A stretch of 59,370 nucleotides of DNA, filler included, from Dugesia japonica (lineage: Eukaryota): assembly GCA_001938525.1 (NCBI GenBank). It is 6 parts of 6 records of this genome, joined end to end, with 100 filler letters (N's around TTAATTAATTAA, not from the genome) between each part and the next. Parts side by side here need not be neighbours in the genome. Positions count along the whole stretch, not along the records: positions 21,124 to 31,506 come from MQRL01630173.1; 5 more parts are not named here. One strand, given 5' to 3'. Below the pieces are notes generated by a model that was not told where the DNA came from, searched no databases, and was given only the letters and a program-made list of their open reading frames with translations. Both the position numbers and the translations under genes were made by a program. This document shows, piece after piece, positions 12,197-55,619 of the stretch. Every line of letters begins with the position of its first letter. Position 1 is the stretch's first letter.

Positions 12197-12964
12197 TTAA
12201 CTCGGGGCCATTTCGAAAAGATTTTCAATCAATACATCTGCTTCTCTATCTAAATAATAGTAATTATACTTTGTTTTCCAGTGTAAATTAACTTCATAAT
12301 CATATTCCATCTTACTAGAAAATATATTACTAAATAAATCATAATAAACCTTATCTTTATCAGTTTTATTTAATTTAAAAAATATAAAACAATTACAATT
12401 ATTTCTAATAGAGTTTTTGTCCAAATGAAAATAAGTTTGTAAAATATAAATAACATTACAATTTACATGTCTTCCTCTAGTAAAATAACTTTTCCGGATT
12501 TCTTGATCTTTTATATTTACCACATTATCAAAAATTATTAAATTATTTTTTTGTTTAGATAATTTATCACAAGGAATAATTTTATTTGGTTTATTACTTA
12601 AAACTACATTAACTAATCTTGGTTTATATGATAAATACTTTTTTTNNNNNNNNNNNNNNNNNNNNNNNNNNNNNNNNNNNNNNNNNNNNNNNNNNNNNNT
12701 TTGATGTTCAAAAATAAAAATAATATCTTGTTTTGTTAATCCATTTTCAAAACCATGATAAAGTAATTGCAGTTCAAATTGATTTATTGTTGTGGAATAA
12801 ATTATCAAAGGATCATAATCTAAAAACTCCGGAGTTAATAACATTTTCATTAACAAAACATTTTTACCTGAGCCAGAAGAACTAATTATCAATAATCTAA
12901 AATTAGATGGAAAGATTTTATTATTAAATATGTTTTTATTTTTATTCCAGATTAACTTAGACAT
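12197..12964 (-). CDS. A32-like DNA packaging ATPase, Polinton family B (possibly decayed)
   Basis: FRLLIISSSGSGKN (degenerate Walker A), LIIFDNV (Walker B), YFTRGRHVNCNVIYILQTYF and SIRNNCNCFIFFK, all typical of A32 ATPases. Confidence 0.9.
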   Translation of the reverse strand: MSKLIWNKNKNIFNNKIFPSNFRLLIISSSGSGKNVLLMKMLLTPEFLDYDPLIIYSTTINQFELQLLYHGFENGLTKQDIIFIFEHQXXXXXXXXXXXXXXXXXXXKKYLSYKPRLVNVVLSNKPNKIIPCDKLSKQKNNLIIFDNVVNIKDQEIRKSYFTRGRHVNCNVIYILQTYFHLDKNSIRNNCNCFIFFKLNKTDKDKVYYDLFSNIFSSKMEYDYEVNLHWKTKYNYYYLDREADVLIENLFEMAPS

Positions 12965-12980
12965 TTTTATTTAATNAAAT

Positions 12981-13832
12981 TTATAAAACAGTTTTCTGAA
13001 GTTCATTACTATAAAATCTGCCTAGAATCTTTTCGTTTTCTAAATCGGTATTTTCATAAGTAAAAGGTTTTGTTTTATATACTTTTCTTATTATAAATAT
13101 TTCATTTGTCCATTTAGCTGTAAAACCTTTTTCAAATTTAGTTTTAAAGATTCTAACTCGATCTCCAATTTTAAATTTCAGTTTTTCTTTTAAATCATCA
13201 TTTTCATGGTTATGATCTTTGATTATTTCTTTTATTTTCCCAGGATTTTCACTAGCTTCTTTTGGAGTTGTTTTTATACCAGAGTGAATTGTATTATCAT
13301 AATCATTTACAATTTTATCTAATAAAGTTTTATTCCATTTTTNATTTCCAACTAATGTAAAGTATTTCCACATTTTAGTTTTTATAGTTCTAATAAATCT
13401 TTCAGCGAAAACTGATCTACCCTCATTTTCAGTATGGTATAAATTAATTTCATTTTCTTTAAGAAATTTATCAAAATACTTTGATCTAATAGCTGATTCT
13501 TTGTCAAACCAGATGTAATCAGGAATTCGATTATTTTCTTCAAATACATTTTCACAAGCTTCTCGTAAAGATTCTTGATTTTTATTTTTTATTGGTACAC
13601 AAAAACCAAATCTAGAGTATAAATCAATACAAACTAAAATATATCTAAATCCTTCAGTTGATGTTTTGACCATATCAATAATATCACAACCCCAAGTATT
13701 ATCTATTTCTTTTATTATTACTTTTAGAAAATGTTTTGGTTTTCTATAATCTTTGTGAAGTTCATTTGCTAATATTTCTTTATTATTNGAATCATCAATA
13801 GAGCCAGCACCTAAAATAATTTTACCTTTCAT
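12981..13832 (-). CDS. Retroviral-like (rve) integrase, Polinton family B; C-terminal part of a longer PLA2-integrase frame
   Basis: LANELHK, TWGCDIIDM, YILVCIDLYSRF, IWFDKES, FAERFIRTIK, KFKIGDRVRI, FEKGFTAKWTNEIF and GRFYSNELQK. Confidence 0.93.
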   Translation of the reverse strand: MKGKIILGAGSIDDXNNKEILANELHKDYRKPKHFLKVIIKEIDNTWGCDIIDMVKTSTEGFRYILVCIDLYSRFGFCVPIKNKNQESLREACENVFEENNRIPDYIWFDKESAIRSKYFDKFLKENEINLYHTENEGRSVFAERFIRTIKTKMWKYFTLVGNXKWNKTLLDKIVNDYDNTIHSGIKTTPKEASENPGKIKEIIKDHNHENDDLKEKLKFKIGDRVRIFKTKFEKGFTAKWTNEIFIIRKVYKTKPFTYENTDLENEKILGRFYSNELQKTVL

Positions 13833-14260
13833 TGCTAATTTTACTAAACCTCTTTGTATCTTTGCAGAAATAGTAGAATTTGGAATATTATATAAATCAT
13901 GAATTAAATTTATGTCAGCTAAATGCCTATCTCTTAAATCTTCTGACTTGTAAGATAAATCATGTTTTAAAACTGCTTCATCAACTCTATTAATTGGTTC
14001 TTCTCATGGTTTTGGATGATTATTTTCATCTAATCTTAAATCTAATCTTGTCCCTGGTCTTGTATAATTATGTTTAAATAAATGTCTTTCACCTGGATAC
14101 TTTTTCCTAGTAAATGATTTTAAATTTGTAGAAGTTAATTCAGAAGATTGAAGATCGCCTTCGATTGGAGCTTTGTGATCTCCACCAATCTTTTTTTTAC
14201 ATATTTTTAAATGTCTTAGTTTATTTTTTTAAGTAATATTTTATTACAATTTTCTCAAAT
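13833..14260 (-). pseudogene. Parvovirus VP1u-type phospholipase A2-like domain, in frame with the downstream integrase (one TGA)
   Basis: Manual translation gives ERHLFKHNYTRPGTRLDLRLDENNHPKP*EEPINRVDEAVLKHDLSY...RHLADINLI...LVKLA, running into MKGKIILGAG. The single stop is at 14004-14006. Confidence 0.85.
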
Positions 14261-14920
14261 ACATGGAACCCTTTTGGATTTTTTATTTTGAAAGTCTATA
14301 TCCATTTTTTATATTTTAAACTTGAAATTTAAAAAGTCTGCTTGGAATTAATTTTTCAAATCTATTCCTCGTTTATTTTCAATCATAACAATTTTAGAAT
14401 TTGATAATTTTATTTCTATATGTTTTTCTTCTAAAATACACCGACATAAACTTCCTTTAAAATCAGGATCTTTAGTTATATGTAAAGTTATATCTACAGT
14501 ATTTATATTATATCCATATCTACTTCAACAAACTCTCTAATTATATAAACTTTAATTTGTATAAATGTAACATTCATGTTTTAAAATAATAAAAAAGTTA
14601 TTTGCATAAAATTTTATTAAATTAATTTTTTTAGAATTTTTATGCATGACTAAATAGATAAACATTTTTCATTTATAAATTTATAAAAACTTAATTAATA
14701 AATATTTTATCTTTTTATTAATTTANNNNNNNNNNNNNNNNNNNNNNNNNNNNNNNNNNNNNNNNNNNNNNNNNNNNNNNNNNNNNNNNNNNNNNAAAAA
14801 ATTCAACTTTTAGCTACTTATTATTATAAATAGAATATTTTCTAACTTTTTTAAATATCAAAAAAATTCTAAAAATTCAAAAACTAAGTACAAGTAACAA
14901 GTAAAAAATAACTAATTGTG

Positions 14921-15246
14921 AGTAAAGGGGAAAATACGCTTTTAACTCAGGAATTTTTATCTGAAATGTGCATTGGCGTTACAGTTTCAAATCTAACACT
15001 TCAAATCTAACATGCAAATTGAACTNNNNNNNNNNNNNNNNNNNNNNNNNNNNNNNNNNNNNNNNNNNNNNNNNNNNNNNNNNNNNNNNNNNNNNNNNNN
15101 NNNNNNNNNNNNNNNNNNNNNNNNNNNNNNNNNNNNNNNNNNNNNNNNNNNNNNNNNNNNNAACTTTGTTGTAGTATTAACGTTCATGCCGTTTGCACGA
15201 ATTCGAAGCTACCCCTCTGAGTTAAAAGCGTTTTTTCCCCTTTACT
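14921..15246. repeat. 30-bp inverted repeat pair (MITE-like)
   Basis: AGTAAAGGGGAAAATACGCTTTTAACTCAG (14921-14950) versus the reverse complement of 15217-15246, 29/30 identical. Confidence 0.8.
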
Positions 15247-16250
15247 TGTATATTAATTGTATACTTGACACTATTAACTTTGAATTTGCATGGTTTGCCT
15301 ATAGGAAAGCTGATTTTCTTTGTTACTACATGCACCACGTAACCTCCGTAATTAAAATTGATTATCATAATCAATGAATTTCAGTAGAACATTGGGATTT
15401 TGTTGAAAGAAATATTTAATTGATCCGTTAAAACCAATATAAATAATGTATTAAATGATGCATAAATTTTAAAAACAAGATGGCGAAATTAAGAAATGAT
15501 GCAGTCTATCAAATTGTTGGACCTAGTGGTAGTGGNNNNNNNNNNNNNNNNNNNNNNNNNNNNNNNNNNNNNNNNNNNNNNNNNNNNNNNNNNNNNNNNN
15601 NNNNNNNNNNNNNNNNNNNNNNNNNNNNAGGTAATGTTATTGTTGTTGATGATTTGTATCAGGAGGCAAAAAAAGAAAGAAATTTCAATTATTTATTCAC
15701 AAATATATCAAGACATAGTAATATGATTTTGATACTCATTACTCAACATCTATTTCATTAAAAGGTCAGTCATAGGACACGTAAACGTTCAATACTTGAT
15801 TCTATTTAAAAATCCTTGAGATCAAACTGTTGTTGATTATTCAATAAGACAAGCATACCCAAATAGCAGACAATTTCTTATTGAATCATGTCAAGATGCA
15901 ATCGAAAAACTACATGGATGATGTTAGAGTAAGAACAGGCATATTTAGTCCAAATGGTATAATTGTGTATAAAAAGTAGTTAATTTTATTAATATAACAT
16001 AAAATGACAAAATTTAAGAAATTTGTAGATGATTAAGTAACAACACGTTAAACATAAAACAATATCTGTTGTGAAAAAAAAGTANNNNNNNNNNNNNNNN
16101 NNNNNNNNNNNNNNNNNNNNNNNNNNNNNNNNNNNNNNNNNNNNNNNNNNNNNNNNNNNNNNNNNNNNNNNNNNNNNNNNNNNNNNNNNNNNNNNNNNNN
16201 NNGACATCAATATAAACAATTTACTGTTATTTATGTGCCATTGAAATAAA

Positions 16251-16572
16251 AATGAAATTAGAAAGAAGTATTCGTATTTTACATCATTGATTAAATCATC
16301 AAAATCTACGAGAATGAAAATTTTGCAATCATTTCCAACGTATATTATAGATGATTGGCTTGAGATTATCATAAATATTGTTTGTGGTAATGTAGTTTTG
16401 AGCGAGGTCAAAAAGAAAGTATTTAAAAAACATAAAAAAAACATTATTAACGCTTGCAAATACGAAATAATAGGAAATTGATGATATAAGTAATGAATAA
16501 TCAAGTAGGTAGCTTTATAGCAGCATTACTTCCAATTGCATTAGCTGCATTAGGCTCTACTCATTTCAAATA
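16251..16572 (+). pseudogene. PW / pX-like core protein
   Basis: DDWLEIIINIVCGNVVLSEVKKKVFKKHKK, then NNQVGSFIAALLPIALAALG, which resembles the adenovirus pX C-terminal GGFLPALIPIIAAAIG. Confidence 0.7.
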
Positions 16573-17595
16573 AACAATGAGTGAATTACAATCATTACCT
16601 AATTTTAATCTACAATTCTCATCAAATTGTTGTAATAGGGAAACTGAAGACAATATGGACGGATCCAAGAACTCAGCAGGTTTGAAAATTGATGAAAGAT
16701 GCTCAAAAAACCAAATGAAAGACGAAAACATGGTTATCGGGTCAACTAGCGTACAGTTTTTAAAAGACTTCCAACAAGAGCATATAAAACATATGACATT
16801 GATGATTTATGATAAATGGATTTGGCAGCCATGATACCATATTCAAAATTTAATAAAAGTTACAAGTATATTTTAACATTTATCGATGTATTCAGTAGAC
16901 GTGCAAGAGCTATACCAGTTAAATCAAAATATACTAATGACATAGAAACCGCAATTGTTTAAATTGTTTAAACTGTCATTGTTTAAAGTGGGCATCTAGA
17001 TAATTTACAAACGGATGTGGGTAAAGTAATTTATAATTCCAAAGTGAGACAACTTACTAATCATCTAAAAATAAATCAATATATTGTATTCTCACAGTAT
17101 AANNNNNNNNNNNNNNNNNNNNNNNNNNNNNNNNNNNNNNNNNNNNNNNNNNNNNNNNNNNNNNNNNNNNNNNNNNNNNNNNNNNNNNNNNNNNNNNNNN
17201 NNNNNNNNNNNNNNNNNNNNNNNNNNNNNNNNNNNNNNGTAAGTGGAGCAATACTTATTGATGTAAGTTCAAACAATCAATTAAAATTATGGTTATCGAG
17301 AAAATAACTAAAAGCAAAAAAATAAAATTTAAAGTTGGTGATCATGTGAGAATCTCAAAAATAACAGTTTCACCATTTATCAAGAATTTCAATAGTAATT
17401 GCACAGAGGAAGTGTTTCAAAAAACAAAAGGTAATACAAAATAAAATACTATTTGAATTTTCATTGTCAAGTAGAACTAAAAGTGTTAAATTCGATAAAA
17501 TGTTAACAAAATCATTAGTATGAATAGAATTACAATATACTCAAATACGCCTTGGTGATTTACAACTGAAATATAAAAGTATTAAGAAACCTAGA

Positions 17596-17883
17596 ATGTT
17601 AAAGTGCTATAATCAAATGTTCATCTGCTGTAGTATTGTTGAACCTATCATTGTAGGAGATGTTAATGTTCTTGCATGGAAATCAATATGGATAGAAGAA
17701 TATGAGAGTGGTAAAATAGTTCAAATAATTGTTGAACATCCAATGTATTTACCTAATTTTTCATCATATATAAACAAATCAGAAATCAATATACGAGATG
17801 ATAGTGGAAAACTAATCACATTTGCTGAAGACTCAAAAACGAATTTAACGTTACATTTTAGAAAGGTTAATGATGAATCCTGA
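17596..17883 (+). pseudogene. Polinton minor capsid (penton/PX) C-terminal part
   Basis: FICCSIVEPIIVGDV...HPMYLP...EINIRDDSGKLITF...LTLHFRK, the conserved PX C-terminal pattern. Confidence 0.85.
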
Positions 17884-21123: not shown

Positions 21124-21480
21124 GGGTGAGCACCGCACATCGTATGTAAATTAAATTTATATGTATCGGGTGGGCACCGTGCATTTATGAAGAAAGTGAA
21201 TTTATATGTGACAGCATACACAGAAACTCTGAAAAATCTATGATGCCACCTGAGCACCGGTAGCCATATGAAAAAATAAAAATTATAACAGAAAATACGA
21301 GATGATAAATGAACAAAAAGTTATGTCCAAATTTGGACACAGTAACAGAATCTGCGAGTGAGCACGGCACGATTTGCTGCGTTTTCTAAAAATGTCAATT
21401 GGCAGCCTACAGTAGCTTTCAAAATGTGATAATAACATTCAGTATAAAAGCAAACGCTTTTAGACATAAAATATCATAAT
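21124..21480 (+). promoter_or_regulatory. Putative promoter of cassette A: four TGRGCAC(C/G)G motifs and a TATAAAAG box
   Basis: Motifs at ~21127, 21171, 21251 and 21359; TATAAAAG at 21443-21450. Confidence 0.4.
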
Positions 21481-22401
21481 CTCATATCTCTTAAAAAGTT
21501 GAGCTCTAGTTTTCTTATAGTTGAAAGAACCTAGTAGCCATTTTAATTTTACGATAAAGTTATTATCAATCAAGAACAAAGTAATTTTACTTGTATTTAT
21601 GATATATGTATGATCGGAAGACTGAGACGGTTTTCCTCGTTGACTAGTTACGCCTGCAACGATAGACATCAGTACTCAGAGATCCGATTCCTAATAATGA
21701 CTATGATAATGAGAGATGAGAGGTTAATGGTTACTAAAGAGAATAATGATAATGAAAGATGAGAGATGATATCATGAGATGTGAATGATGAATCGATAAT
21801 GAATGTGCAGGGGATGTGTAATAATTTGGTAAATCGATAATGAAGTATTAATGTAACCGTTATGATACTGAGAGACGAGTAGTAAGATTGATAGGGTGGT
21901 GGTTAAATTCGACCTAACTTACTATTACATAGTCTTGTCTAATGAATTTATATTGAACTATTTATGTGTCCATACTTATTGTAAATGTTTATAAAATATT
22001 ATTACTTTAAATTGATAATGGTTAGTTTCATTTTACAGATTTATGCAACAAAAATTTTATAATTATTCGAGCTGCCCGATGGTTCATTCATTATTCGGAA
22101 GAGGATGGGTATCTCCGGAAATAATATATGAATCCGAACGGGGTTATCCAGATGCAGCATATAAATCAATGAGATATATTAATAGACATATGAGATGAAT
22201 TAATTATGAATTTTGCTTGGAAATCGAGAACCCAATCTCATTAGCAATGACGAGTGATTGTTGATAGACCAAAGCTTTTGGTAACATTCACTTCATTCTT
22301 TAAAATTAAAGTAAAATGAATAGAGATATTTATGTTGCTGTATTAGGATATGAAATACTCTTATAGTATGAAGTAACATGGTAATGCTATATTATTCATA
22401 G

Positions 22402-22935
22402 ATGACCAATTTGATCACCAAGGCAGAAGCAATGAAATCATTCGCACCGGCCGGATATGTATTCAAGACGGCACCATGTAACCATATCCCACAGTTGTGG
22501 GATTCGGTGACTACTGAGGTAAGCGACGTCGAACTATGGTGGATCACTCAAGCACAGCTGCGAGTCAAGGCGGACAAGATAACGAAGATGCGAGATAGGA
22601 TATTGAGACAACGACATCACTTCGCCGAATAGATAAATCGAATTAATGCTCTGCAGATACACGTCAAACAGCAGGAAAGCCAACATCAATTGCAAGTGAC
22701 GGAGATTACTAGATGGCAGCAGGAGCGTGAAAAGGAACTAGTANCATTGTNAATACGAGCAACCAAACTCGCCAAGCAGTAGCAAACAGTTATTCAGTCA
22801 ATGAGAACAACACAACGCGAGGCGGAAGAATATACCAAGCTCTCGGAAAGATTAGCCTGTAAGGTTGAGACGGTGATCCAACAAGTGCTAGCACCCTTGG
22901 ATGAGACTGTAGACAATTTGGAAACAATAGTGTGA
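22402..22935 (+). pseudogene. Unknown coiled-coil protein exon (cassette A2), two internal TAG
   Basis: A 177-codon frame following the acceptor TTCATAG, with heptad-like Q/E/K/L-rich sequence and GC above the flanks. Confidence 0.55.
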
Positions 22936-23130
22936 GCCTTGTGACATCAGCAATATAGTTTTAGTTAATGATTTTCTGGTCTTAATGTCTGTCTAAAGCA
23001 TTAGAGATAAATTTCATCTTAAGCTATAATGAGTTAATTTATGAAGTTCTTGTTAACTAATATGATGAACAATTTTACCTTTTAATAAAATATTTATTTA
23101 AATATACTTTCTAATATCAATAATTTTTAG

Positions 23131-23450
23131 TGACAGATGCAAGTAATCTCACGGATACATCTATGACTGACATCAAAGCCAAATGGTTCGCCACCCAGAA
23201 GAGGTTAAAAAATGAGATATTGGAGTTACAGCAAAGGAATCTACAGCTCAGGAGTAAAATAGATAAGGTTAAAGAAAGAGAGCTAGCGCTTTTGCAAACA
23301 TGCCGGGCTATGGCCGATATTATCAAGACTTATGCTGATCGGGAAGGAGTGCTGATATCCACCGTTCGCACCCTTACCCAGGTATTGAGATCAGTCAAAG
23401 AAATCAACCAAGAAAAAGACGTTATCAATATCGACGAATGCTTGTTATGA
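23131..23450 (+). CDS. Unknown coiled-coil protein exon (cassette A3)
   Basis: Open frame in phase 1 after TTTTTAG. Contains ADIIKTYADREGVLI, similar to AEIIRSHHDLENKLV at ~37.5 kb. Confidence 0.55.
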
Positions 23451-23699
23451 AATAAGGTTTATTCATAAAGTGTTGTATTTGGAGAATATATTATTGAATA
23501 ATAACATCCACAATTTGAGAACCGGACTTCAACGAAATTTAAAACTAAGACGGGATTCGCGTAGTCCTACTGGAACCGGGAAAAGGGGGATCGTGTTACT
23601 AGAGAGAGTAACACAAATTTCTGTGGTTGCCAGGTTTCATTCCCCAGACAGAAAAGATATGTGAAAAAACATGGATGGTGAGAATGAGATTAAAATTAA

Positions 23700-24860
23700 A
23701 AATCGAACTAAATAAAGATAAAAATAATATCAAAAGTCAAGCAACCAACAGATCTAATGTCCATTCTTTTAAGAAGATCAGAATATTTGCCATTATCAAG
23801 AACAATTGATTCTACCATAGCCTTATAGTAGTGGTTTTTAAATGCTTTTATTAGCCTCATATTTAAAGGGTGAAGAATGAAAGTTGTATTTTTTGTCAAA
23901 AATAGTAATTCTAAATTGCTGTATGTAATGAGAGAATGACTGGCAATATTATCCAAAAGTGGTAAGTTTAGCATCTTAATATTTAGACCAGCACACCAAC
24001 CATCAAACATCCATTCATTTCTACTGCTCAAGCTTTCAACTTATATTGCTCACAAATCGAAATTTTTAAAGGGTCTAGAATATTTTGACTTTTCAATGAT
24101 AATTGACTTTAGATCTTCACTCACCATTCTCAAAAATAGTAAACAGTGACACGTTCCTTTATCTGCTTTACTCATCTGTAGTAATCTGATTAAGTGACAA
24201 TACTCTTGCTTGGAGAACTTTTGTAATTAAAGACCGTCAAGTCACAATTCCAAATATCGTTTGGTTTCAAAATCTGCTTTTTTTGTTCAAAATCTCAAAG
24301 AATTCGGGTATTTTAGATTAATCGGCCGATTTTCCTGAATTTGTCCAACTATACATTTGATGCCTTAAACTTATCCAAAACTATCTCACTTGTTTTTTTC
24401 AAACAAATTGTTGTAATCACATGACCATTTAAAGCGATGTTATTTCTTCAAAGGCTGCAAATGACATAGGCAGGATCATCTATCTGTATAAACAAATCGG
24501 TTTTAGAGTAGTATTAGGTTGAGATTTCGAATTGGTAACTGCATTTTGTAGTAGATCCGAATGAAATTCAATATTCTTTTTAATTCTAGGTATAGTTCTA
24601 TTCCTTGAATTATATTTATAGTTTTTTATAATTTATAGAACCAGATTCCTTATGAACACATCAATATGTTTGGCTCGTTTGCGTTATATACTTATAATCA
24701 TATATTGCTCCAAACTTCGAAGTCTTTGTTTTTAAAAATGGAAATGTTTTTTAATAAAATGGAAACCATAAAAGCATGTATGATTTATTGAATATCTTTA
24801 CGATGACCCACAAATTTAAATTCCCATAAAATAGAGGATCCCCAAAGAGAGGTTAAACTG
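23700..24860 (-). mobile_element. pogo/Tigger transposon pseudogene
   Basis: IWNCDLT, KERVTV, LLDNIASH and ILHPLNMRLIKAFKNHY motifs. TIR-like TA-CAGTTTAACCTCTCT at 24860. Confidence 0.85.
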
Positions 24861-25244
24861 TATTATTAAAAACAAAAAAAATGATAGTAGTTTTATCAAT
24901 TTATCAGTTGTTGAAAATAATCCATTCAGTGTTGATTGATCATTAAAGCTTATTTCAAATATAAGAAAACTGTATGCCCATTTCTTGAGTTTTAGAGGAT
25001 CCTAAATAAAAATATTAATAATATTTATTAAAAAATAATATTACCTGAAAAGCATAAATAGCTGCTTTCTTCACGAAAACCATTTCAATTTTTTAATAAT
25101 TTTGAGCTTTCCCACATTTGATATTAATGGAAGACATTATCTTTTGTAAAAAATGAATTTCAATTTTATAATAACGAAAATATTGGTAAACATCAATAAT
25201 CATNNNNNNNNNNNNNNNNNNNNNNNNNNNNNNNNNNNNNNNNN

Positions 25245-26060
25245 CTAATAAAATACAAGAAAGGTTAATTAAACTTTTATATAAATTTATTAAAATTCCA
25301 AGTAACGTAATCCTAATTTCACAAGTTAAATTATGTGAAAATGCATACATTTTTAATAAATTAAAAAAAAATTTATAAGTATGAAATTTAAATAACAATT
25401 AAATTTGTAATAAATTAATTGTATTTATTAAACTAATCATCAAAAATTTAAATCATCANTAATTAAAAGTCNACGAATTAATCGTAAGTGATCAAATGAA
25501 ATCATAATAAAAGTCATAATATCCTAATTTCACAAGTTAAATTATGTGAAACTGATTACATTTTTAATAAATTAAACAAATTTTGTCTAATTTCATTACA
25601 TTTGTCATATTCTTAAAATCTGAAACATAATTCATGTTTTTAATGGTCAAGTTGGATGGTTGGTAAAAATCTNNNNNNNNNNNNNNNNNNNNNNNNNNNN
25701 NNNNNNNNNNNNNNNNNNNNNNATTAAATTTGTAATAAATTAATTGTATTTATTAAACTAATCATCAAAAATTTAAATCATCATTAATTAAAAGTCGACG
25801 AATTAATCGTAAGTGATCAAATGAAATCATAATAAAAGTCATAATATCCTAATTTCACAAGTTAAATTATGTGAAANNNNNNNNNNNNNNNNNNNNNNNN
25901 NNNNNNNNNNNNNNNNNNNNNNNCATTTGTCATATTCTTAAAATCTGAAACATAATTCATGTTTTTAATGGTCAAGTTGGATGGTTGGTAAAAATCTAAG
26001 AAAATCCAAGGAAGGTTTATTAAACTTTTATATAAATTTATTAAAATTCTAAGTAACTTA
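25245..26060. repeat. Near-identical ~325-bp tandem duplication flanking small gaps (possible assembly artefact)
   Basis: 25398-25672 is repeated at 25723-25997. Confidence 0.8.
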
Positions 26061-26409
26061 ACACATATTTCAAACTTATAAGTATGATTATAAGTATGAT
26101 TATAAGTTATAAGTATGATTAAAAAAGTAAAGATAGCAAATTACCACATTAGTCATATCCTGATTATTATAATAGCAATAAACCAGCTTCGAATAAGTAC
26201 AAAAAGCCATCAATTGTAAAGTATTAAAGGACCAAAAATAGCGTTAACTAACAATGCAATAAAATAGTAAAGATAAATAAAACACTGGCTTTAAACTTTA
26301 AATTTTGACTCGTAATAAATAAGACTCAGATTGAATTGAAATTGATTTTTTTAATATTGTTTACATACATAGCGAACTTTCCAAACTTCTAAACTGAATA
26401 TTGCCCGTA

Positions 26410-26830
26410 GAGAAGATAATATTAATGTTAACATTGCCCGGCGAGCAGCTAGACCGCAATGTGAACATTGTTTGGGGTGCGACTAATGCTAAAAGACATT
26501 TAGTTAAATGTACTTGTTCATTTTAATACTTTTATCATTTTATTTGTTGTGTATAAAATTTATTGATATTTAACTATGATATTCTTGATCAATGTAAAAT
26601 TCAGAGTCAAATAATGTGAAACAAGATAAAATCATAAATTTCACTTAATTTAAACAAACTTGTCATGAAACGCTTTTCATTTCAATTAAAAATTAAATTT
26701 CGGTTATTTAAACAAAAGATTATAAAAATCTATCATTTTAAACAAACAATCTTAAAAATTAGTTAATTTTAGCAAGAAACATCAATTTCGCTTAATTCAA
26801 ACAATGAATTGCATTTCAAATGATTACGTA
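26410..26830 (-). repeat. Second member of the repeat family at 10150-10500, inverted
   Basis: AATTTCACTTAATTTAAACAA at ~26637 is the exact reverse complement of TTGTTTAAATTAAGTGAAATT at ~10347. ATTGCCCGGC at ~26433 mirrors GCCGGGCAAT at ~10478. Confidence 0.65.
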
Positions 26831-28319
26831 ATTATAACGTAATATTATACGAATTTCTTCACCGGTGCCCATATATAATGCATAAATTTCTGTTTCGCTT
26901 TATGTCTATTACGTATTTGGCTAAACCCAATTTGACTGACTTGTAAAGCAGTGTTGGTACAGAGAATTCCAATCTACTAGAGTTACTGTTTTGTATTTTA
27001 TTTGTTACTGAACAACAAAAATCATTTGCGATAAGTAAGTATATTTGATAATTTTATCAAACATTAAATTATATTATATTTTTTTTACTGATTTTGTCTT
27101 AATTGTCATACTTTATTCNACTAATTTTATTATTTAAAACACAATATTTGGTTTTAATGAAGACACATTTTTAAATATTTACAGGTTTTATACAAAAAGA
27201 TTGTAAAACAGTTTTCTAATTAAATAAAATAATAAAACGTTTTTAAGTTCAATAGAATGTAAGAAGATGAAATAAAATCTAAAAGAACCCACTAAATATT
27301 GAATATATTATAAAGATAAATAAAGATAATAATAAAATGTTAAAATAATTGTTTGACTAGGTTATACTTTAGGAATAGTTATAAGAAAAAATTGTTTTTC
27401 TATTCATTTCTTTGTAGTATAAATATTTTTGCCATGTTTTTATTGATTTTACTGAAAATGTAAAATAAATTTTTTAGAAAATTTAAAAATTAATTATTTA
27501 CTGAATATAAATTGAATTATTGTTCTAATAATTATATAATACGAGCAATTGAGTAGATACGAAGATTGTCAACAATATTATCACAATTATTTCATTAACA
27601 ATCAATGTGAAATGAGTAATCTGAAAAAATATAAAATAAAGTAAGAGTGATTAAAACAAAATTATTAATTAAACTAACTGTTTATTTTAAAATTTAAAAT
27701 ATGTAAAAATATTTAATAATTTTATATAAAATTTATGAAGTTTATATTTATAATATTACATCTATAAATAATTTAACGCGAAATGTTCAACTGGTGATAT
27801 AGTTTACGATCGTGTAGATAGTAAATTAAATTCGTCATTGAGGAGCTTAAGGGGATGTACGCTTTCGTGGAAGATAGATTGGGAAATCTGACGGTAACTA
27901 TCATTTTACGATTCAAATATAACAATATTTATATTTTCCATTTATTTAAAGGAACATTTTAATTTAAAGATAAAAAACGTGCAAGATCATTATAGTTTGT
28001 TTAGATCTTATGACAATTTATTAGCTATTTATTAATATTTTTCATATTTTAAAGAAAACTTAAAATATCATTTTGAAAATGTACTTGTACAAATTCATAT
28101 TTAAGTCTGAAAACTCTGTATTCTAATATTACCAACAATATTCACCGTCAAATCTGTTATGGATGAGATATGAAATTATTGTAATTTATAAAGTATCAAA
28201 AAGTTCAAAATCAGGGTTTCTAACTTACAGCTTGTGTCTCTTTCAATTAAGTAGATAGTAGCACACATAAACAAAAACCTCTTCTTTAAAGTAGAAAAAA
28301 CAGTTTTTTGTTTCAATAT

Positions 28320-28606
28320 ACTACCATGATAAAAAAATACCTGATCAACTCAATTTAAAATGAAACAAACTATTTATTCAACACAATTTTAGTTATCACC
28401 TTCGAAGAAGTCTCCATTAACCTCAATGCACATATGACAGTGTGTAATCCAATTTTCAAATGCCTTCTGGAACTCCTTCTTTGGTATACTTAACAACGCA
28501 TCCTTCGTTTTTTGTTTGATCTCTTCATTGGTATCAAAACGTTTTCCTCGAAGTGGTTTTATCAGCCTATTAAATAGGAAGAAGTTGCAAACAGCCATAT
28601 CTGGTT
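28320..28606 (-). mobile_element. mariner transposase C-terminal fragment
   Basis: PDMAVCNFFLFNRLIKPLRGKRFDTNEEIK...FQKAFENW...CIEVNGDFFEGD. Confidence 0.9.
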
Positions 28607-28929
28607 AATATATATAATATGCAATTATCCAAAATAAGTTTAAATGATCACGTAATAATCACTTATCTTTGCTCGAGAATTCATATATCTTTTATCAATT
28701 TCAAATAATTGGATAAAAGTAATTATATCAATAACAGTGGATATTCGATAATTATTCAAAGGTTTCAAAACATACGTTTACTATGATAAATAAAAATTAT
28801 CCAAATTTTGTATTAATTAATAAATGTTCTCTGCTTTATATTGACATTTTATTAGTTTTGTACTAATTATTATACATTTTATTTTAATTAATGATTAATT
28901 ATTTAGTCATTCAAAAACAATTAGTTCAA

Positions 28930-29830
28930 TAAATAATCATCTATTAAGTGTCCATCTCGTTTCATTACTTGTTTCTAACGGTATATCGAATGACTCAACG
29001 ATTCCTTCCGCAACACCACTGTGGTGTTGAAATTTTACCGGAACGGATGTTGTTGTATCGATCAGAATAATTAATAAGTGGGCGGTTCAATGTCTGGAAA
29101 ATAGGGTTTATGTAAAAGAACACTACAGTTCAGCTCCATAGTTTTCCAAAGAATCGCTTTTGTATTGTATGGTCCGATGTTATCTAAATACAGGATAACG
29201 CTTCTTATATCATCCAATACAGAATGTTTACGTTGGATAGCATCTTTTAATCGCGTCAATTGCCTACAAAAGAAATATTCAGTAACAGTTTATATTAGAT
29301 AATTAGGTGCGCATTCCATCAAACACTAAGCGAAATCTTTTCCATGGATATTTTTCTTCAAAGTTGATTTTAAAATTTGTTTTGGTGAGAGCCATTGGTT
29401 TTTTTTGTGTGATCAAACTTTACTAAACTCTCATCACCAGTATCATTTGACTAAGAAAAAGGTTTCTGTCTTATTAAATAAGCAACGAATTACAGATGGA
29501 TAATCGTTGTATTTTCATTAATTTCAGTCAATTGATGAGAGGCCCAATTTTTCTAAGGTTTCCTTTTCCAATTTCATGTGGATAACCAGATTTTGTTAAC
29601 CTAGATGACTTTCATCTATATACTATCTCATCCAGGGTCATTCAAGGATTTTCCTCTGCTAAAGTCTTGATCACCGATTGCAAATAGTTTTCCTGGTCTC
29701 ATCTTATCCACCAGAGCAATGTTACATAATCAAAACTTTGCAAATAATTTAATTGATTAAGTAAAAACCTTTGTGTATGTACAATTTAGGTATTTTATCT
29801 GATTTATTGCAAATTTGATGTAAATGTATA
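28930..29830 (-). mobile_element. Highly decayed mariner transposase
   Basis: TGDE, LTRLKDAIQRKH...VILYLDNIGPY and HKPYFPDIEPPTY (equivalent to HPPYSPDLAPSDY). Confidence 0.8.
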
Positions 29831-30789
29831 TGAAAACAAAAAATCCACTATTTCAAAAATTTATAAATGTTCTTTAATAAATCTTAAATAAATCCTTTTA
29901 TTCAATTCTATAGACTTTTAAATAGATTGATTTTTTTAGATGTAATCCTTACCACTGAAAGGATTTGGTTTATTATGCGTGAGATAAGATGGCTACATGA
30001 GAAGATCGCTACAAAGTGAATAGTTAATCAATTAAATTATACAAATCTTTATATATATTATCAACATAATTTATATTCTTGAATTCTAGTTTAATGAATT
30101 CTAGTTTTTAACCTGATGAAAATTCATTAATACATATATGATCATATTTTGTAAGTCGTTATGCAGGATTCGATTCATGTTCATATCAACACAGTTTCAT
30201 TTAATAATTTAAACAAATTAATTACAGATCTCAAAATGACTACAATTGCTAGCAACTATAAGACTGTTTTTAATATCATACTGAAGAATTTTCATTTCTA
30301 TTGAGTTCTTGTAGCTAATTATTGGACAACTTCCTGAATTTAAGAAAATAATTGTATACTTGCAGTGTTGCCTACAACTTGTGACAACCAGAAATTTCAT
30401 TTCACTTGTTATTACTTGTGAAATGTTTCCTTTATAGATAATATTTGAATTCATAATTTTATTCTTTGAGTATTTGTTGATTCATATAAAAATGACTTGC
30501 AATTATTATTATCTTATGTGATTAATTTAAACTATATTAATTAAATATAAAATATTGTAATAAATTAAAATATATTATGTCGGAGTATTTTAAATACAGT
30601 ATTCAGAAAAATCTATTCAAATGGTTAGCTTGTAACCACACACACATTAGACAAAATACAGCTTTGTCCTTTTAGTTTTTGTAATAATTTTATTGTTGAT
30701 CAATTTTGTTTGACACGATTAGTAATAAACACCTCAATTACAAACTTAAATTACTAGTATTACACAACAACGAAAGCATCAAATAATGC

Positions 30790-31506
30790 CTTTCTTCGCG
30801 GGATTTCCAGTTTTACGATTTCCTGGGAAATTTACCAAAAATGTCATTCTCGATTTCCAGGGAAACGAGAATACATTCCCGAAAAACGAAAGTTCACTCT
30901 CGGGAAATTTAATTAACATTTAATCTTAAAGATAAACAAGAAAAATATAAAAGAAATGTGTTAGAAAAAATGTAATGTCTTAAATTAACATTTTATGTAC
31001 TTAATAACTCACCTATGAATTTTGGAGATCAAAAATATATATTCTTTGCTATAAAGTTGTTTAAAAGTAAAAAAATCTACACAGAAATATAGTTCATTTA
31101 ATTTGAATTGCGAATCTAATTTAACAATTAAATTTTAATTTTTCTTGCAAGTTTACTTTTATTAAACCTAACAAAAATATTATTAAACGTAATGTGATAT
31201 AATAAACGTTATGTTTAATATAATATGTTTGAATATTTTAAATTAAAATAAATTCTAAATAAAAATTTTTAATTTTAAGGAGATAAAACATGTCAACAGA
31301 AAAAAATTGGAGATCATACTTACGTGAAAGGGTGGTTTTACATTTCAGATGAATCGTCATCTACAAATACAGCATGGAATAGATTTGATAACTTTGAACA
31401 ATAAAATCGAAGTGCTAGCTACACTTTCCCCAAAAACATTTGATAAATTTTAATAAATATCAGTAAGAAGTAAACAGAAAACAGCCTTAACAGTACAACC
31501 TAACCG
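30790..31506 (+). mobile_element. Possible hAT-like element 5' region with TTCC(C)GGGAA-type subterminal repeats
   Basis: Cluster of TTCCNGGGAA / TCGGGAA motifs at 30795-30910. Confidence 0.35.
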
Positions 31507-31606: not shown

Positions 31607-34600
31607 AAAATGAAGCATTAAAGCAGGAAATAAATAGTACCAAAGCCAAAACTCAATAGCAAATAAATACGATACAAGAAACTTAAAATCGAGAGCAGAA
31701 AACATTCGAAAAGTTGAAACGAGAGCATCAGTATCTTCGGCAACAAGTAGTTCAGAATAGGTTGAGAGCAAGAGGAATGACAAATTCTAATGCAGAACAG
31801 ATTAATATGATGTGTACAAAGAAAATATGAGACGATAAGTCATAGAAAAATCATCCCGTATTTCGAAGAAAGATAGAAAGAAAATTAGAACTCGCTGAAG
31901 ATTTTAGAGTTTTTATTGATCGGAAAGCATATTTTTAATAATAAATCACTTAATTGAATTCATGGAATTGAGGGATTTATATGCAGTTACTAAAATGAAT
32001 TTCGGAACTCAATCAGAAGATAATAAAACGGAGTTAATGACAGAAACTAATTTATAAAATCGTGATAACCCAAAAAATGGTCAACAACAATCCAAAAATG
32101 GTGGGACCGTCAATCGAGAAATACGTATATGTAACAAGTAATGATGAAACAACATCCATGCCATGCGGATATTATAATCAAGAGAAAAATCAAATTTAAA
32201 GCGCCTACAGTCGAAGGATTTATAGTAGCAATAAATGAACTAAAGTGGCCGAAACTATTATATAAATATGTACTGTGTTCAAGATAATAAAAACATTAAT
32301 TGGTCAAGATATTTTTAAAGAACATATTTCAGTATATGGAGTAGGACCGGGAAAATTCAGCTTTTACAATTGCTAGAAAATGATAGTCTATATCCAAAAA
32401 AACAGTCACTGTGGATGCATTTATAATATGGTACAATAATTGAAAATATCGAGTAATTGGAAAAGACATTTTTTAAACATACAATGTGGTCACGAACTTT
32501 ATCGGCAGTCAAAAGAATTCGGCCAGAAGGATGATTAAGTAAAAAAAGGAAAACCAAAAGTATCAAAGAACTCAGTAAAATGCGATTATAATGCAAAACA
32601 AGGAGTGGAAATAATGATCAACCTAGTTTTAGCAAANNNNNNNNNNNNNNNNNNNNNNNNNNNNAATCATAAACAAGAGAATACATCGAAATAAAACTGA
32701 GAAGAACTAGAGGAAAAAATATGAGATTGATCGAAAAGAATATTGAGCCCTAATGAATCATATAGTGGAATTAACAGAACCTGGACATGTAGATGCAACA
32801 ACTAAATTACCATGGAAGTATATGATCGATTAATATGAAAAGGATATTTTAGAAGGGTCAACTACTGCTGATTATAGAATTAGTGCGATGGGAGCGATAA
32901 AACCCGCCCATGATTTATATGAGTGTGAGATGTGATTAATTATAATAATGATAATTAAATATTTTATGTTATGTAATTGTATGTTTGCATGTATGCCAGA
33001 AAAATCTGATATGTTTGACTGTTTGATGACATAATTACCAACAGGGTCAATTGGGTAATTACTATACCTGATCCCAATATATATACACATAGCATTGTTG
33101 TGAAATACATATTTTGATTTCATTACTTATCTCTCTCTCTTATTATTACTTAACAATGAGTATGGCTTATTTGCCTGAAGAACAAATATGTATATAAATA
33201 AGTACAATCACCGGTTTGGATATCAAAATATTCCTCGAAAATTGGTACTAATGTGAACTATATTACATTGTATAATCTGTTCTTCAGTTGGAATTATTAA
33301 TAGGAAGCGGTGAATGAGCACATTTGCATCTATGGATTGAATCCCGGTAGTGCAACTGAAGTAACATTGTTTGAAAGCAAAAGATGTTTTTATTTAAAGT
33401 CTCAGTACGGTCACATTTACATCGTCGAAAAACAGAACAAATCATGAGATCATTAGATAGCGAAAATAAGAAAAACTTTATGGTATGTAATGATGTATAT
33501 TTGAAACTAAATGAAAAGACATCGTGATATATTGTCGGAAAGAAATCACTGAAGAGTACGAAAAAACCTTGGTAAAAGCATCAGGCATTTGGCTAGAATC
33601 GATTGTGGATATTTACTTGTTTTTTACATTTAAATCTATGGATTGAATGCTGGTGGTGCAACTGAAGTAAGAAAGCGAGAGATTGTTTTTATTTAAAGTC
33701 TCAGTTTCTCTNNNNNNNNNNNNNNNNNNNNNNNNNNNNNNNNNNNNNNNNNNNNNNNNNNNNNNNNNNNNNNNNNNNNNNNNNNNNNNNNNNNNNNNNN
33801 NNNNNNNNNNNNNNNNNNNNNNNNNNNNNNNNNNNNNNNNNNNNNNNNNNNNNNNNNNNNNNGAGAGCATTTTCGTGTAAGGTTGAGCTTAGTAAAGAAA
33901 GATAAAAGGAAAACTAGCATCGTAGTTACAGAAATTCAGAGCGAATCAACTGAACAAATAATAAAAAATGATGAAAAATTTGGATAAAATGTCGATATTT
34001 AGAAGCAGTGGATAATTTAGTAAAGGTAACTATAAGCTGAAAAGAAGTGATTCCAAAACAAAGTTATTGGAGAATGATGAATCTACTATGCTACACAATT
34101 TTCATTTCCAAATCAATTGGGAACTAAGGAGAAAATAGATGAAAATAACGAGAAGTTATTGAAACTTGATAAAAGAAACAACTGTTGGATCAGTCTGTGG
34201 AGTGACAATTTATTATCCTGTATTAAACAAAAGTAGAGAGTCTATACCAAGCTTGTCATCTTAAACTGTTAAAAATAATTTCAAATTACAATAATTGGAG
34301 AATTTAGAGATATATTAACTTCACTGCCTTTGCAAGAGGAATTAAATAGAAATAGAATCATATGTGATTATATATAGTTTGAAAAGAACGAAATAAATGA
34401 ACATCTAATTGGATTTAGATTACGACTTGGAGAAATAATAGGATTAACCTTATAAATCGTTGTCAAAAAACCCAAAAGATTTCGAATACTACGAATTTAT
34501 AAAATCCGAAATAACTTTCATGGATTCAACGACATAGATAGAGTATGTGCCACCCGGGGCATTCGTTAAAATTGCCACCACTAATACTTTTAAAAACAAA

Positions 34601-36020
34601 ATCTGACCGGTCTTACATGTAATTTAATGTACCATTTATTAAATACTTATATTGGTATAAAAACAAAAAAGCGCTGTAATTTAAGTAATAATAAGAATAT
34701 AAAATACACACAAAAATACAAATTATAAGATATTAAAAATAAATGAACTGAAAATATACTTTATAAACGAGACATGCAAAAGTTGTCTGTATACATTGGT
34801 ATAAAAATAAAAAAGCACAGTAATATAATGTAGCCATCATTAATTAAATCTGTTTTCAATCATCAACTGTTTATGTCAGAATGTCCCACCGATGAGTAGA
34901 AGACGAAATAATGCCTAAGGCGATCCAAAACCATGATAGATTGCTTTATTCATTTAGCAGATGAGGAAATTTAGCCGAAAGCTGAATTTGCAACAAAATT
35001 TGAACCATGTATGACCTTTAGATTGGCATTAACCAAAGTCGGGATGGTTATATAAAAAAAATTATAAACAAATGCAAAATTCAGAGATTAAAAATATAAT
35101 AAATCGATGTAATCATTTGAAGACAGTTTGATGAGAAATGTTCTGGGAATTAGTTAATAAATTGTTGGAAATGCACGCTAACAATGTACCAAAGCAATCA
35201 GTTAATGTTATAGTATATTTTCTGTATGAATCGGAGAAAGAATTTAAGATTAAAACCACTACAACTTTGGAAAAATTAATAAATGAAATACTAAATTATA
35301 TTAACAGGCAAATGCCAAGAGGAAAAGTAATTGGACTAGAAAGATAAGAGAAGACATCGAGATATATTGCGGAAAAGAAATCACTGAAGAGTATAAAGAA
35401 AACTAGAAAAAGCATCAGGCATTTGGTCAGGATTGATCATGGATATTTACGTGTTTTGGTAGACGATCAAGAAAGAAATTCGTATACTAAGAGAATACCA
35501 AGAATAACATTATGTAGAAAGACTATACAGTTATAATGTGCACGTGCCATGGAGGTTACAAATACATGTAGACAAACTAAATATTAATATAATACAAACG
35601 GTACGGGTAATACTGCCTCGACCTATATCCAGATCACAATATCAATCAACCCAAGAACTATGTTCAATAAAACATTTGTACGAATGAATGGCAGCAATAA
35701 TAACTAAAAAACAAAAACAATATTGTAGACACAGAGTAAAATACAACAATTTGCAACAGTTTTTAGACAAAAAAGTATGCCGATGCAAGAAGTGCAACAA
35801 TTATTGGATCAAATAACCAGCAGTGGTTTATCTATAAGATTTAAGTGAATTAACTTATCAAAAATCAAGATTAAAAGAGGAATGTGAATGTATGCCGAAG
35901 CATTTTAAAAATAATTACTAGGTGGCAAAGCAAGAAATGGAAGAAAAAAACCCTCTCAAATTCAAATTATTGAGCTGACGAATTAGAAAACAAGAGTAAT
36001 AATAATGGTTTATGAAACAG
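31607..36020 (+). mobile_element. Heavily decayed A-rich, probably LTR-retrotransposon-derived region with internal duplications
   Basis: Strong A skew and coding-like fragments. 33515-33620 is duplicated at 35351-35458, and 33328-33407 at 33633-33706. No intact diagnostic motif. Confidence 0.35.
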
Positions 36021-36875
36021 TGAATTAATTAATGTATAAGTTGTCTTTTTATTCACGATATTCAGAGATTCGGTAACACTGGAATTTTCATAGTTCTTAG
36101 ATATACTTATAAAATTTATGTAAACCTTTAAATAATTGTTTCAAATGACTAGCTGTCGAATGAGTATCCATAACTTCACTTATATTTGTAGTGCACAAAT
36201 GTCAATCTTGGATTCGGATTTGTTATACACTAGGCAGGCTTATAAATCTATTTGTTAATTGAATTATGCAACAAACAAGAAGTGAATACTCAAATATTTA
36301 TTTGAGATACACATGTTTACATTAAAATTAGTTTTTCTTCTAGTCTACATTTAAAGAATTTGTTGTCTCATTTATTGAGATAAGATAATATGAATTAAAT
36401 TGAATTTCAAGGAAGATTAATTTGAAATGTATTTTCATTTTGTGATTATTTATAAATTGAATACGATCTAACCAAACAAATATTAGTGATAATTATATTT
36501 AAAATTATTTAGAATTATATTAAAAATAAAAATTCAATATTATAAAACCAGCTTTGTTTAAATAAAATTTTGCCTAGATAGTGCTGCATCTACATATATT
36601 CTCATATGGAAAAACCAAACAATCAAATGTTGGGGTTCTACCTGAATTGGCGACGGAAGATGCGCGGCTGGGGAAAATCAGCCCTCGGGGGACCCTTTCA
36701 AGAATTTAATCTAATGTCCCAAGATTAGATATTCAGCGTAGAGTGGTTGACCTTCAACCTAATGCGAGGTTCACACTCGTACATCTTTGGTTCGGGTTCA
36801 CAATTATTTCCCTAGTATTTTAAAATACCCAAAAAAATAAACACCAGATTACTAATAAATTATATTGTTTCTAAG

Positions 36876-37237
36876 TTACATGCCATCTAGAGCACCCGGG
36901 TCTAACCACTGGGTCAGCTCATCTGGTATAAAGTCGAACAACACTGAATCGTCATTATCATCCCAGTTGAGGTATGCAGCATTACCCAGCTGGCGCGACA
37001 GGTCGGCAATGTAGCGCTTCAAGAATTCAACTTTGTGCAGCAGGAGCTATTTCGTGCTCTCAGTTAAATCATTTTGTTTCTTTACAATCACGTCCAACCG
37101 CTTTATCAGTTTATTGCGTTGCGTTAAGTGATAGAGCAAAGCATGCTCAAATTGGCGTTTAAGGTGTCTTTCGAGCAGAAGTTTCTGGATGAGTCGGTGA
37201 CACCGTCTTAGGCTACGGAGCAATTGAATACGTGGCA
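36876..37237 (-). pseudogene. Unknown coiled-coil protein exon (cassette B4), one internal TAG
   Basis: Phase-1 frame after CATTTTAG: PRIQLLRSLRRCHRLIQKLL...STK*LLHKVEFLKRYIADLSRQL...LDGM*. Confidence 0.55.
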
Positions 37238-37379
37238 CTAAAATGAGTGAAATATTAAAGATATCATAATAATGAACTATATTAGTTTTAATCTTGGACG
37301 ACAACAATTTTATTTTAAAGAAATAGAAGAGTGAACACGAAGTCATAACAACATGAAGAAAGGTTTATTCACAGAGTCA

Positions 37380-37753
37380 TATAAACACAGATAACTATGA
37401 CCATGGAGTTTGGGTACTTTTCTCTATCCTCAAGGGTTCGAGAGGCATTTTCTCCTTGACATGCAAGATGTCTCTAACCAGTTTATTCTCTAGGTCATGG
37501 TGGGACCGGATAATTTCCGCAAAGGACTCAACTTATTTTTTCCATACTCATTTTTGCATGTGGGAGGCTTCGGCTTCCTTTTTGCAGGCGATACATTTTT
37601 TCTTGTACCGAAGAACTTTACTATTTGCGGTGACCATCTCCGCCTCCCAGCGTCGTTTCGCAAGGCGATAGAGGTCCCAAGTCATTTCTTGGTCGTCACT
37701 GGCATCCGTCATCTTTTTGGTTGGAGCTGTAGTTCAGTTCAGTGATGAATGCA
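37380..37753 (-). pseudogene. Unknown coiled-coil protein exon (cassette B3), three internal stops
   Basis: Phase-1 frame after TTTTGTAG: ...MTDASDDQEMTWDLYRLAKRRWEAEMV...VESFAEIIRSHHDLENKLVRDIL. Confidence 0.55.
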
Positions 37754-37954
37754 CTACAAAATATATTTTATAAAAATTGGTACTTAATTTTAATATTTCA
37801 ACTTAGGCAAACCAGCTAAAATGACCGAGCACCCAAATTACAGGATCAACTTAAATGGACTTTACCGGTTAAAAGAAAAAGAAGTTAAAATTGCTTAACA
37901 CTTTTATTATATAATTTAGCCAATGAACAACAAAAAAAATTAAATTTATTGTCT

Positions 37955-38256
37955 TTACGCCACAGGCTTTGGTACATTGTTTTCCGATGCACCTCCACTA
38001 GCGTGGTTCCTTAAATCCCATAAGGTATTACCAATATCTATGGTAAACCTAGTATTCCGTGAAAGGTGGGTGACTGACACAGGTACAAATGCCGGACCGT
38101 CCTACCACGTACTAGTAATTTGATTAGTCACGGGATCTATGGTGGTAACACGATGCAGTACTTCTTGGGTGCGATCGGGGCCGTTCCACTGATAAAAAGC
38201 TTGGCGCTCTACCTCAGCCCTTTCTCGTTCATTTTCTGAGTCCGGGGCGGGAATAT
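37955..38256 (-). pseudogene. Unknown protein exon (cassette B2), one internal TAG
   Basis: 99-codon frame IPAPDSENERERAEVERQAFYQWNGPDR...PKPVA*. The acceptor would be a mutated TTCAA; AATAAA follows just after the stop. Confidence 0.45.

Positions 38257-55444: not shown

Positions 55445-55491
<47 letters not shown>

Positions 55492-55551: not shown

Positions 55552-55619
<68 letters not shown>

Follow-up and report, generated by a model that had tools for sequence, protein, structure and literature searches.

A decayed, high-copy repeat of Dugesia japonica encoding an unnamed coiled-coil protein family in a candidate leader-spliced cassette

Gene units in which one promoter and a common leader serve alternative acceptors, and thereby several small proteins, are typified by the accessory regions of complex retroviruses and by adenovirus units. 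In insect gypsy elements the env start is reportedly itself made by splicing, which would be a precedent for a start codon split between exons, although the literature listings searched did not confirm it. Among mobile elements, several described classes invite comparison with the locus reported here. First, the Burro elements are giant Gypsy-like LTR elements of planarians, long and high in copy number, with accessory ORFs; the domains named in the available part of their description are gag, PR-RT-RH-IN, BIR, BCL2, MATH, ankyrin and env, and decaying fragments have been described in Dugesia japonica (PMC6431247). Second, Polintons/Mavericks are large, with 5-10 ORFs in either orientation (PMC6431247), and have, according to the portion of the report available, expanded in Dugesia (bioRxiv 10.64898/2025.12.11.693146). 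Third, Terminons/Penelope-like elements carry accessory coiled-coil ORFs in one orientation (PMC6431247, section 8). When Burro, Maverick, Terminon and Helitron were compared with our locus by the accessible portions of their published descriptions, none was confirmed or excluded (PMC6431247, PMC8532177, PMC11410931, bioRxiv 10.64898/2025.12.11.693146).

The window, that is, the whole stretch of D. japonica DNA analysed (59,370 nucleotides including filler), consists of contigs joined by N44-TTAATTAATTAA-N44 spacers, five of which were found by pattern search; its GC content is ~17-38% per kb. We concentrate on a compact cassette (A) and on a second one of similar layout (B), which lie on different contigs (Table 1). 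Our preferred reading, to which we assign a probability of about 0.6, is that the small-gene module of a dispersed, high-copy mobile element is represented in cassette A by a dead copy, and that its leader was spliced to alternative acceptors. The carrier would be an unclassified transposon or an endogenous virus-like element, presumably mobile. In copies still active, a single TATA promoter, preceded by repeated TGRGCACSG sites, would drive a short non-coding leader, and its splicing to one of several downstream acceptors would yield several small proteins per promoter. Blocks A1 and A2 would bring their own ATG at the acceptor, whereas A3 would start with TG and have its ATG completed by the last base, A, of the leader, so that A3 would be translated only from correctly spliced RNA. 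Its product is modelled as a long, parallel coiled-coil dimer in which residues 49-82 form a conserved patch and the acidic, hydrophobic tail resembles a SUMO-interacting motif; it would most likely be an adaptor for a host or element partner.

Table 1. Coordinates of cassettes A and B and of the features discussed in the text.
Feature	Position	Strand	Remarks
Cassette A contig	21124-31506		separated from the B contig by spacer
Four TGRGCACSG repeats	21124..21367	+	motifs at 21127, 21171, 21251, 21359; upstream of the TATA box
TATAAAAG, putative TATA box	21443..21450	+	presumed promoter; 9 such words in the window
Putative non-coding leader exon	21470..21580	+	last base A; start approximate
Putative splice donor AACAAA/GTAATT	21581..21588	+	sequence word
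Conserved hairpin block in first intron	21610..21690	+	from X1 depth and fold
13-mer also in cassette B	21699..21711	+	opens a GATAATGA-rich tract; B copy at 38683 (-)
Block A1	22039..22264	+	acceptor-like end, ATG at 22043
Block A2	22402..22935	+	ATG right behind acceptor; 177-178 codons
Block A3	23131..23450	+	AG/TG acceptor, 105 open codons, phase 1
GC-richer 3' block	23510..23664	+	purine tract (~23577-23589), 8-bp hairpin; fold z -0.30
Decayed DDE_1 (pogo/Tigger-like) fragment	23762..24121	-	Pfam DDE_1, E 1e-6
Cassette B contig	31607-40658		
Block B4	36876..37237	-	AG/TG acceptor, one internal stop
Block B3	37392..37753	-	AG/TG acceptor, three internal stops

If spliced as proposed, cassette A would function in the manner of viral accessory-gene units, which is a likeness of working and no established membership in a named family: the one-promoter, alternative-acceptor arrangement, itself presupposing the splicing, parallels the retrovirus and adenovirus units, whereas cassette A has no linked gag, pol, env, capsid or LTR in the DNA scanned and no sequence match to them. 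A scan of 18 frames with stops read through, covering the 1.5 kb downstream flank of A and parts of the B contig (the remainder of the A contig, 25204-31506, being inspected without stop read-through), detected no transposase, RT, integrase, polymerase or Rep by A or on the scanned parts of the B contig, except the DDE_1 scrap, which is probably a separate insertion. Neither terminal repeats nor a target-site duplication were seen at cassette A, the contig of which begins in the promoter repeats, and no long direct repeat surrounds it among the 20 largest repeat families shown. As with Burro, the A repeat is present in high copy in an AT-rich flatworm genome; however, none of the Burro domains listed in the available part of that description was found in or beside A or B, and Burro is described there as a polyprotein as opposed to the alternatively spliced cassette proposed here (PMC6431247). 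Likewise, Gypsy/Burro gag-pol (RT, RNase H, integrase) was not found in the 18 flank frames, the upstream DNA being missing from the A contig; the purine tract of the 3' block is the only polypurine-like feature at A, and no paired LTRs occur among the repeats shown. As for Polintons/Mavericks, ATPase and integrase fragments do occur in the window, on contigs other than those of A and B, whereas the scanned flank of A and the scanned parts of the B contig hold no PolB, integrase, ATPase, protease or capsid, and neither the long TIRs nor the 6-bp target-site duplication of this class was seen. Cassette A resembles the Terminons/Penelope-like elements, as far as their description is available, in having a coiled-coil ORF in one orientation, but lacks RT in the scanned frames and telomeric repeats; Rfam gave 0 matches at E<=1 over the window, hence no hammerhead ribozyme, although a decayed copy could hide one. 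Helitrons, according to the accessible text, combine multi-exon cargo with a short 3' hairpin, as in the 23510-23664 block, and mostly capture fragments, unlike A3, which is a whole conserved ORF (PMC6431247); cassette A shows no RepHel in the scanned frames and no CTRR directly behind its 8-bp hairpin.

Transposon debris fills every contig of the window except the host-gene ones. Maverick/Polinton-like remains lie on two contigs (12197-17883 and 4694-6465), with an A32-type ATPase (Pfam E 3.5e-9) and an integrase ORF whose N-terminus is weakly phospholipase A2-like; several segments of 4694-6465 match 15470-17102 at 75-79%. A near-intact Tc5/DDE_1 transposase frame (Pfam E 4e-36) occupies 51288-52406 (-), fragments of Gypsy-like RNase H/integrase (Pfam) occur at 41302-42025 (-), and a 78-bp palindrome with perfect arms and no spacer spans 46751-46906. 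This Maverick-like, Gypsy-like and pogo-like debris (Pfam) accompanies a host gene at 54400-57120 (-), which from its sequence we take to encode a receptor guanylate cyclase-like protein; its ~50-nt introns served as a guide to host splice sites, and one of them contains a MITE-like 83-bp inverted repeat (55631-55849). An 880-codon open frame at 47620-50262 (-), rich in Asn, Ser and Glu and with a hydrophobic stretch at its end, is probably an exon of a host membrane protein.

The repetitive nature of cassette A is seen directly in four read or contig runs aligned to 21124-22743 (1620 bases) at 80% likeness: X1, a DNA-like contig run with no kind on record; X9, RNA merely by guess; and X10 and X11, both RNA. 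X1 contributed 595 contigs, of which 60 are at least 99% alike, 122 fall at 95-99%, 171 at 90-95% and 242 below 90%; up to 43 overlie one position in the promoter (21366) and 25 in A2. The summed X1 depth peaks at 12,319 over the fourth promoter motif, the deepest part of the interval, and is mostly 1163-2407 in the exon-like A1/A2 bins as opposed to 103-597 in the intron bins; in the leader (21502-21555) it is 1495 against 486 and 448 in the adjoining bins. The summed depth of A2 is ~1200-1900 versus 15.8 for the single exact-match contig listed, but summed depth does not equal copy number, so the resulting estimate of some hundred copies gives no more than the order of magnitude. At numerous sites the present copy departs from almost every other: 40 of the 234 differences were listed, and the 16 of these that lie in A2 number 3/6/7 at codon positions 1/2/3. 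Thus, cassette A is a decayed copy of an old repeat, and the X1 contigs establish its high copy number, the spread of ages among its copies and the better conservation of its exon-like blocks.

The four TGRGCAC(C/G)G motifs of the original prediction are present on the plus strand, and the motif is strongly over-represented, with 5 matches in the window where 0.09 would be expected and none of 100 shuffles reaching 5. Since the contig starts inside this repeat region, it does not include the element's left end. The fifth motif lies on the same contig in the opposite orientation (26863-26871, -), and its surroundings do not align with the A promoter above shuffles. We confirmed the position of TATAAAAG at 21443, the sole such word within 21124-23664, and also that the leader candidate, 21470-21580, has no ATG, as had been noted. 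With regard to the donor, the indels listed among the copies in the X1 alignment start at 21589, and a diverged relative represented by four X11 reads carries the word A-GTAAAT roughly as far from 21610 as the putative donor lies. GTAAGA at 21882 was considered as a leader donor and rejected, as all eight X1 contigs covering 21884 differ there and the depth is low. The first intron contains a block, 21610-21690, in which X1 depth (3338, with 31 contigs at 21632) exceeds that of the exon-like blocks and on which four X11 RNA reads lie. It folds as a long (80-nt) hairpin (z -1.87; 9 of 200 shuffles as good) with no Rfam match; other copies differ in its loop-side half and are apparently still able to pair.

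The acceptor-like ends predicted before 22039, 22402 and 23131 are all present. That the blocks behind them are GC-richer is borne out for A2 (41-51% per 100 nt) and A3 (35-50%) relative to the flanking introns (18-27%), but hardly for A1, at just 34-35%; the suggested fourth block at ~23510-23664 fails the acceptor and GC-step filter and is unsupported as an exon. The frame opened by the ATG of A1 is a candidate frame, with 2 stops in 75 codons as against 8 and 5 in the other two; X1 depth here is 811-2407, and the commonest variant has a shorter piece in place of 22129-22187. The long frame of A2 is in phase 0, as originally described, and its 178 codons include two internal in-frame stops and two N-codons in this copy. 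At the first of these stops (22630) all nine X1 contigs covering the site read otherwise, and depth over 22420-22743 is mostly 1163-1866. We found no relatives of A2 in a word-indexed protein search (near lengths only), Pfam or PHROGs, and its N-terminus had no match in viral_contigs.

A3, by contrast to these blank searches, defines a family. An unindexed search of 1.84 billion representatives returned 5 hits (E 1e-10 to 4e-5), and a profile of these (near lengths only) brought the total to 18 relatives, the 5 included, of 63-115 aa and 24-36% identical to A3 in the alignment. Within the family pairwise identity ranges from 24 to 85% (median 44%). Its motif is L-x-Q-x-N-R...K-S/T-Y-A-D-R-E followed by an acidic V-V/I-D-L-D-like tail; eight columns are invariant over all 19 sequences (L53, R58, Y67, A68, D69, R70, E71 and T80), and column conservation is 0.76 at residues 49-82 versus 0.46 at 1-20, a pattern which suggests constraint at the protein level. 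A profile of the 18 relatives without A3 recovers A3 at E 2e-22, and we regard A3 as a complete member of an unnamed coiled-coil family. In the family tree A3 (branch 2.97) and the relative P0010 are long branches and most forks are unsupported. For 15 of the 18 relatives the source was checked: they are unnamed clusters, each a singleton or a pair, on ENA/JGI/Logan contigs of 0.5-2.2 kb, none from UniRef or NCBI. Neither A3 nor six family members reached the curated cut-off in Pfam; PHROGs gave nothing for A3, P0013 and P0024 and one match at E 0.006 for P0010; the PDB returned generic coiled coils (best E 0.04) and BFVD 0 matches for A3, and the Atlas generic hits only for the family. The A3 profiles had no match in viral_contigs and no confirmed relative in the prokaryotic genome_contigs, a word-indexed search with A3 alone (near lengths only) found nothing, and two DNA patterns found nothing in viral_contigs. 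Two GC-rich loci (L001, L002) from a scan of metagenome_contigs with a 19-base word were judged chance, and a geminin-like reading of A3 had no support in Pfam or the PDB. Among the papers searched, few of them subscription ones, none deals with such a cassette or with the A3 family, while repeat libraries or supplements may name the repeat. The original view that the cassette belongs to an old, diversified family and is no one-off is thus upheld, albeit on evidence other than its own, namely the hundreds of variant X1 contigs and the 18 distant relatives of A3.

The AlphaFold2 model of A3 is one long helix of ~90 residues (pLDDT 90.4). Modelled in two copies, it forms a parallel in-register coiled coil over residues 11-95, with a score of 0.55 against 0.00 for the best of 3 controls; the runs agree in 100% of contacts (pLDDT 84). 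In benchmarks, 21 of 30 microbial pairs passed this dimer mark but 0 of 23 single chains did; for eukaryotes the figures were 17 of 29 pairs (7 of 16 from animals) and 0 of 30 single chains, with only 1 of 7 among the pairs that have no older solved relative. The model thus supports a parallel homodimer, with the proviso that a generic coiled coil may pass by likeness.

That these proteins come from hosts rather than mobile elements is one alternative: cassette A could be a pseudogene cluster from a host multigene family of small coiled-coil proteins that spread by segmental duplication. The TATA promoter and introns would suit such a family, as would the want of a linked mobility gene and of matches in viral_contigs, BFVD or PHROGs. 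We nevertheless hold it to be improbable, as there are hundreds of variant contigs in which a promoter, introns and several unrelated ORFs were amplified together, the relatives of A3 are unnamed singletons or pairs on short contigs outside UniRef and NCBI, and the repeat is nearly silent in two RNA runs. Over 21124-22743, X10 (6% read) has 0 reads and so provides no test of splicing, while X11 (25% read) has 21 partial reads of diverged relatives, none 99% alike and none with a splice joint; the pieces from X9 are unspliced. The splice-joint check in X10 and X11 covered the acceptors 22039 and 22402, that at 23131 lying outside the interval. LTR elements and Polintons are piRNA-silenced in planarians, according to the available part of one account, and such silencing would fit the near silence of cassette A (PMC8532177). 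With no spliced read and no linked transposase or polymerase, we infer rather than observe the element class and the splicing of cassette A from one leader.

A further point is the start codon of A3. The window has 373 acceptor-like sites, of which 25 are followed by TG and four of these by an open phase-1 frame; three of the four are A3, B3 and B4. A leader ending in A, joined to this TG, gives an ATG in frame with A3. The alignment places the first residue of the relatives in register with the A3 acceptor: among the 18 relatives, 14 have the first residue of YADRE at 64-69, and A3, when counted from its AG/TG codon, has it at 68. Two relatives, P0018 and P0010, were called with an upstream extension and, like A3, have V at the position of the A3 start; counted likewise, they give 68 and 70, respectively, and the residues before this V, A and I, allow a YAG acceptor. 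In 16 of the 18 the called protein has an M where the start is expected or further on, and gene callers write M for GTG. We give even odds to the proposal that the ATG of A3 is made at the splice junction. Two weak points raised in the original prediction, the ATG-less leader and the phase 0 of A2, vanish if the leader is non-coding and A2 uses its own ATG.

Alternatively, the same repeat may have had ordinary starts, each block using its own ATG (that of A3 being broken, which is possible in a decayed copy) or receiving a small coding exon; the blocks might then be separate one-intron genes or trans-spliced cistrons rather than alternatives behind one leader. This accords with the ATGs of A1 and A2, the decay of this copy, the M calls among the relatives, the AATAAA/ATTAAA words between the blocks of cassette A and the fact that flatworms trans-splice. 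Cassette B, moreover, offers a candidate for a coding phase-1 leader, whose ATG lies 10 nt upstream of the donor GTAAGA at 39216; B1 opens with AC, and B3 is interrupted early by a stop and has an ATG of its own farther on. TG at the acceptors of B need not, therefore, mean a split start. Against ordinary starts speak the V shared by A3, P0010 and P0018, the enrichment of TG at open acceptors and the single TATAAAAG upstream of all blocks of A. Further, a flatworm spliced leader ending in AUG would, if joined to the A3 acceptor, lead straight into TGA. On balance we consider ordinary starts rather unlikely, and continue with alternative splicing from one leader as the preferred reading.

Cassette A had been described as a divergent copy of cassette B, a relationship we find unproven, since only a borderline match between A3 and B3 and a similar layout link them. 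Upon alignment with bias-controlling shuffles, A3 and B3 do score above expectation (local score 56; shuffle p 0.0005; p 0.0025 with shuffling in 10-residue windows; best of 11 pairs) and in the same register, but BLASTP gives E 0.68 and the signal weakens as the profile grows: hhalign of B3 against the A3 family yields E 0.012 (probability 3.6%) with 6 sequences and E 0.19 (0.3%) with 19, and HMM scores of 7.6 and 6.0 bits are matched by 2-14 of 1000 shuffles (p 0.002-0.014). Five of the 18 relatives beat window shuffles against B3 at p<0.05, and when the window was searched with the profile of 5 relatives, B3 was the best non-self match (E 0.62). Conversely, B3 has HHDLE where the family has its invariant YADRE, and TDAS, proposed as a further link near the start of both, is not conserved in the A3 family. 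The suggested comparison of A2 with B3 or B4 gave no signal (p 0.3-0.6), no other pair of blocks matches, and by these tests B4 appears unrelated to A2 or A3; two 20-residue matches of its C-terminus in viral_contigs (L003, L004) were judged chance.

At the DNA level, the 13-mer reported from both first introns exists at 21699 (+) and 38683 (-), but as a link it is near chance, as a word of that length or longer is shared with the first intron of A by 9 out of 165 unrelated, mutually overlapping slices, representing 6 places, and 14-16 of 500 Markov sequences (~3%) share one of at least 13. Only 2 of 34 windows reach z ~3 between A and B, both of them AT-rich and neither above the best shuffle; the leader regions give p 0.04-0.69 over 4 anchors, and cassette B has no TGRGCACSG motif. 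Its TATAAAAG at 40251, followed by an ATG-less stretch ending in A before a GT at 40128, parallels the layout of A, with no sequence likeness to the A leader (p 0.63; 185 of 753 slices as good). Homology of the two cassettes within one ancient family, which is compatible with the preferred reading and forms a separate claim, draws on the shuffle results, the common layout and the AG/TG acceptors of both; given the evidence against it, we entertain it tentatively, as something that could well be wrong, and any kinship of B3 to A3 would be very remote at most. A purine-rich, strongly decayed coding-like stretch (31607-36400, +) runs towards the 3' end of cassette B, with an internal duplication (33513-33623 and 35348-35457) and no Pfam match in three frames, which could be the body of the element carrying cassette B.

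Finally, the A3 family shows conservation at the protein level across deep lineages, yet is nameless in all the libraries consulted; the high-copy repeat that it marks could not be placed in a known class of transposons. Should a known Maverick or Gypsy family prove to have this element as its accessory region, the gain would be a modest one of annotation. It is a bolder and rather doubtful proposition that A and B represent an undescribed group of invertebrate mobile elements with leader-spliced small genes, the conserved coiled-coil family among them, whose start codons exist only after splicing (A/TG), so that no protein could be made from RNA left unspliced or spliced wrongly. The YADRE motif is a ready probe for pulling whole elements from long-read genomes; and if the bolder proposition is true, a start codon assembled by alternative splicing across an entire element family would be an unusual control device.
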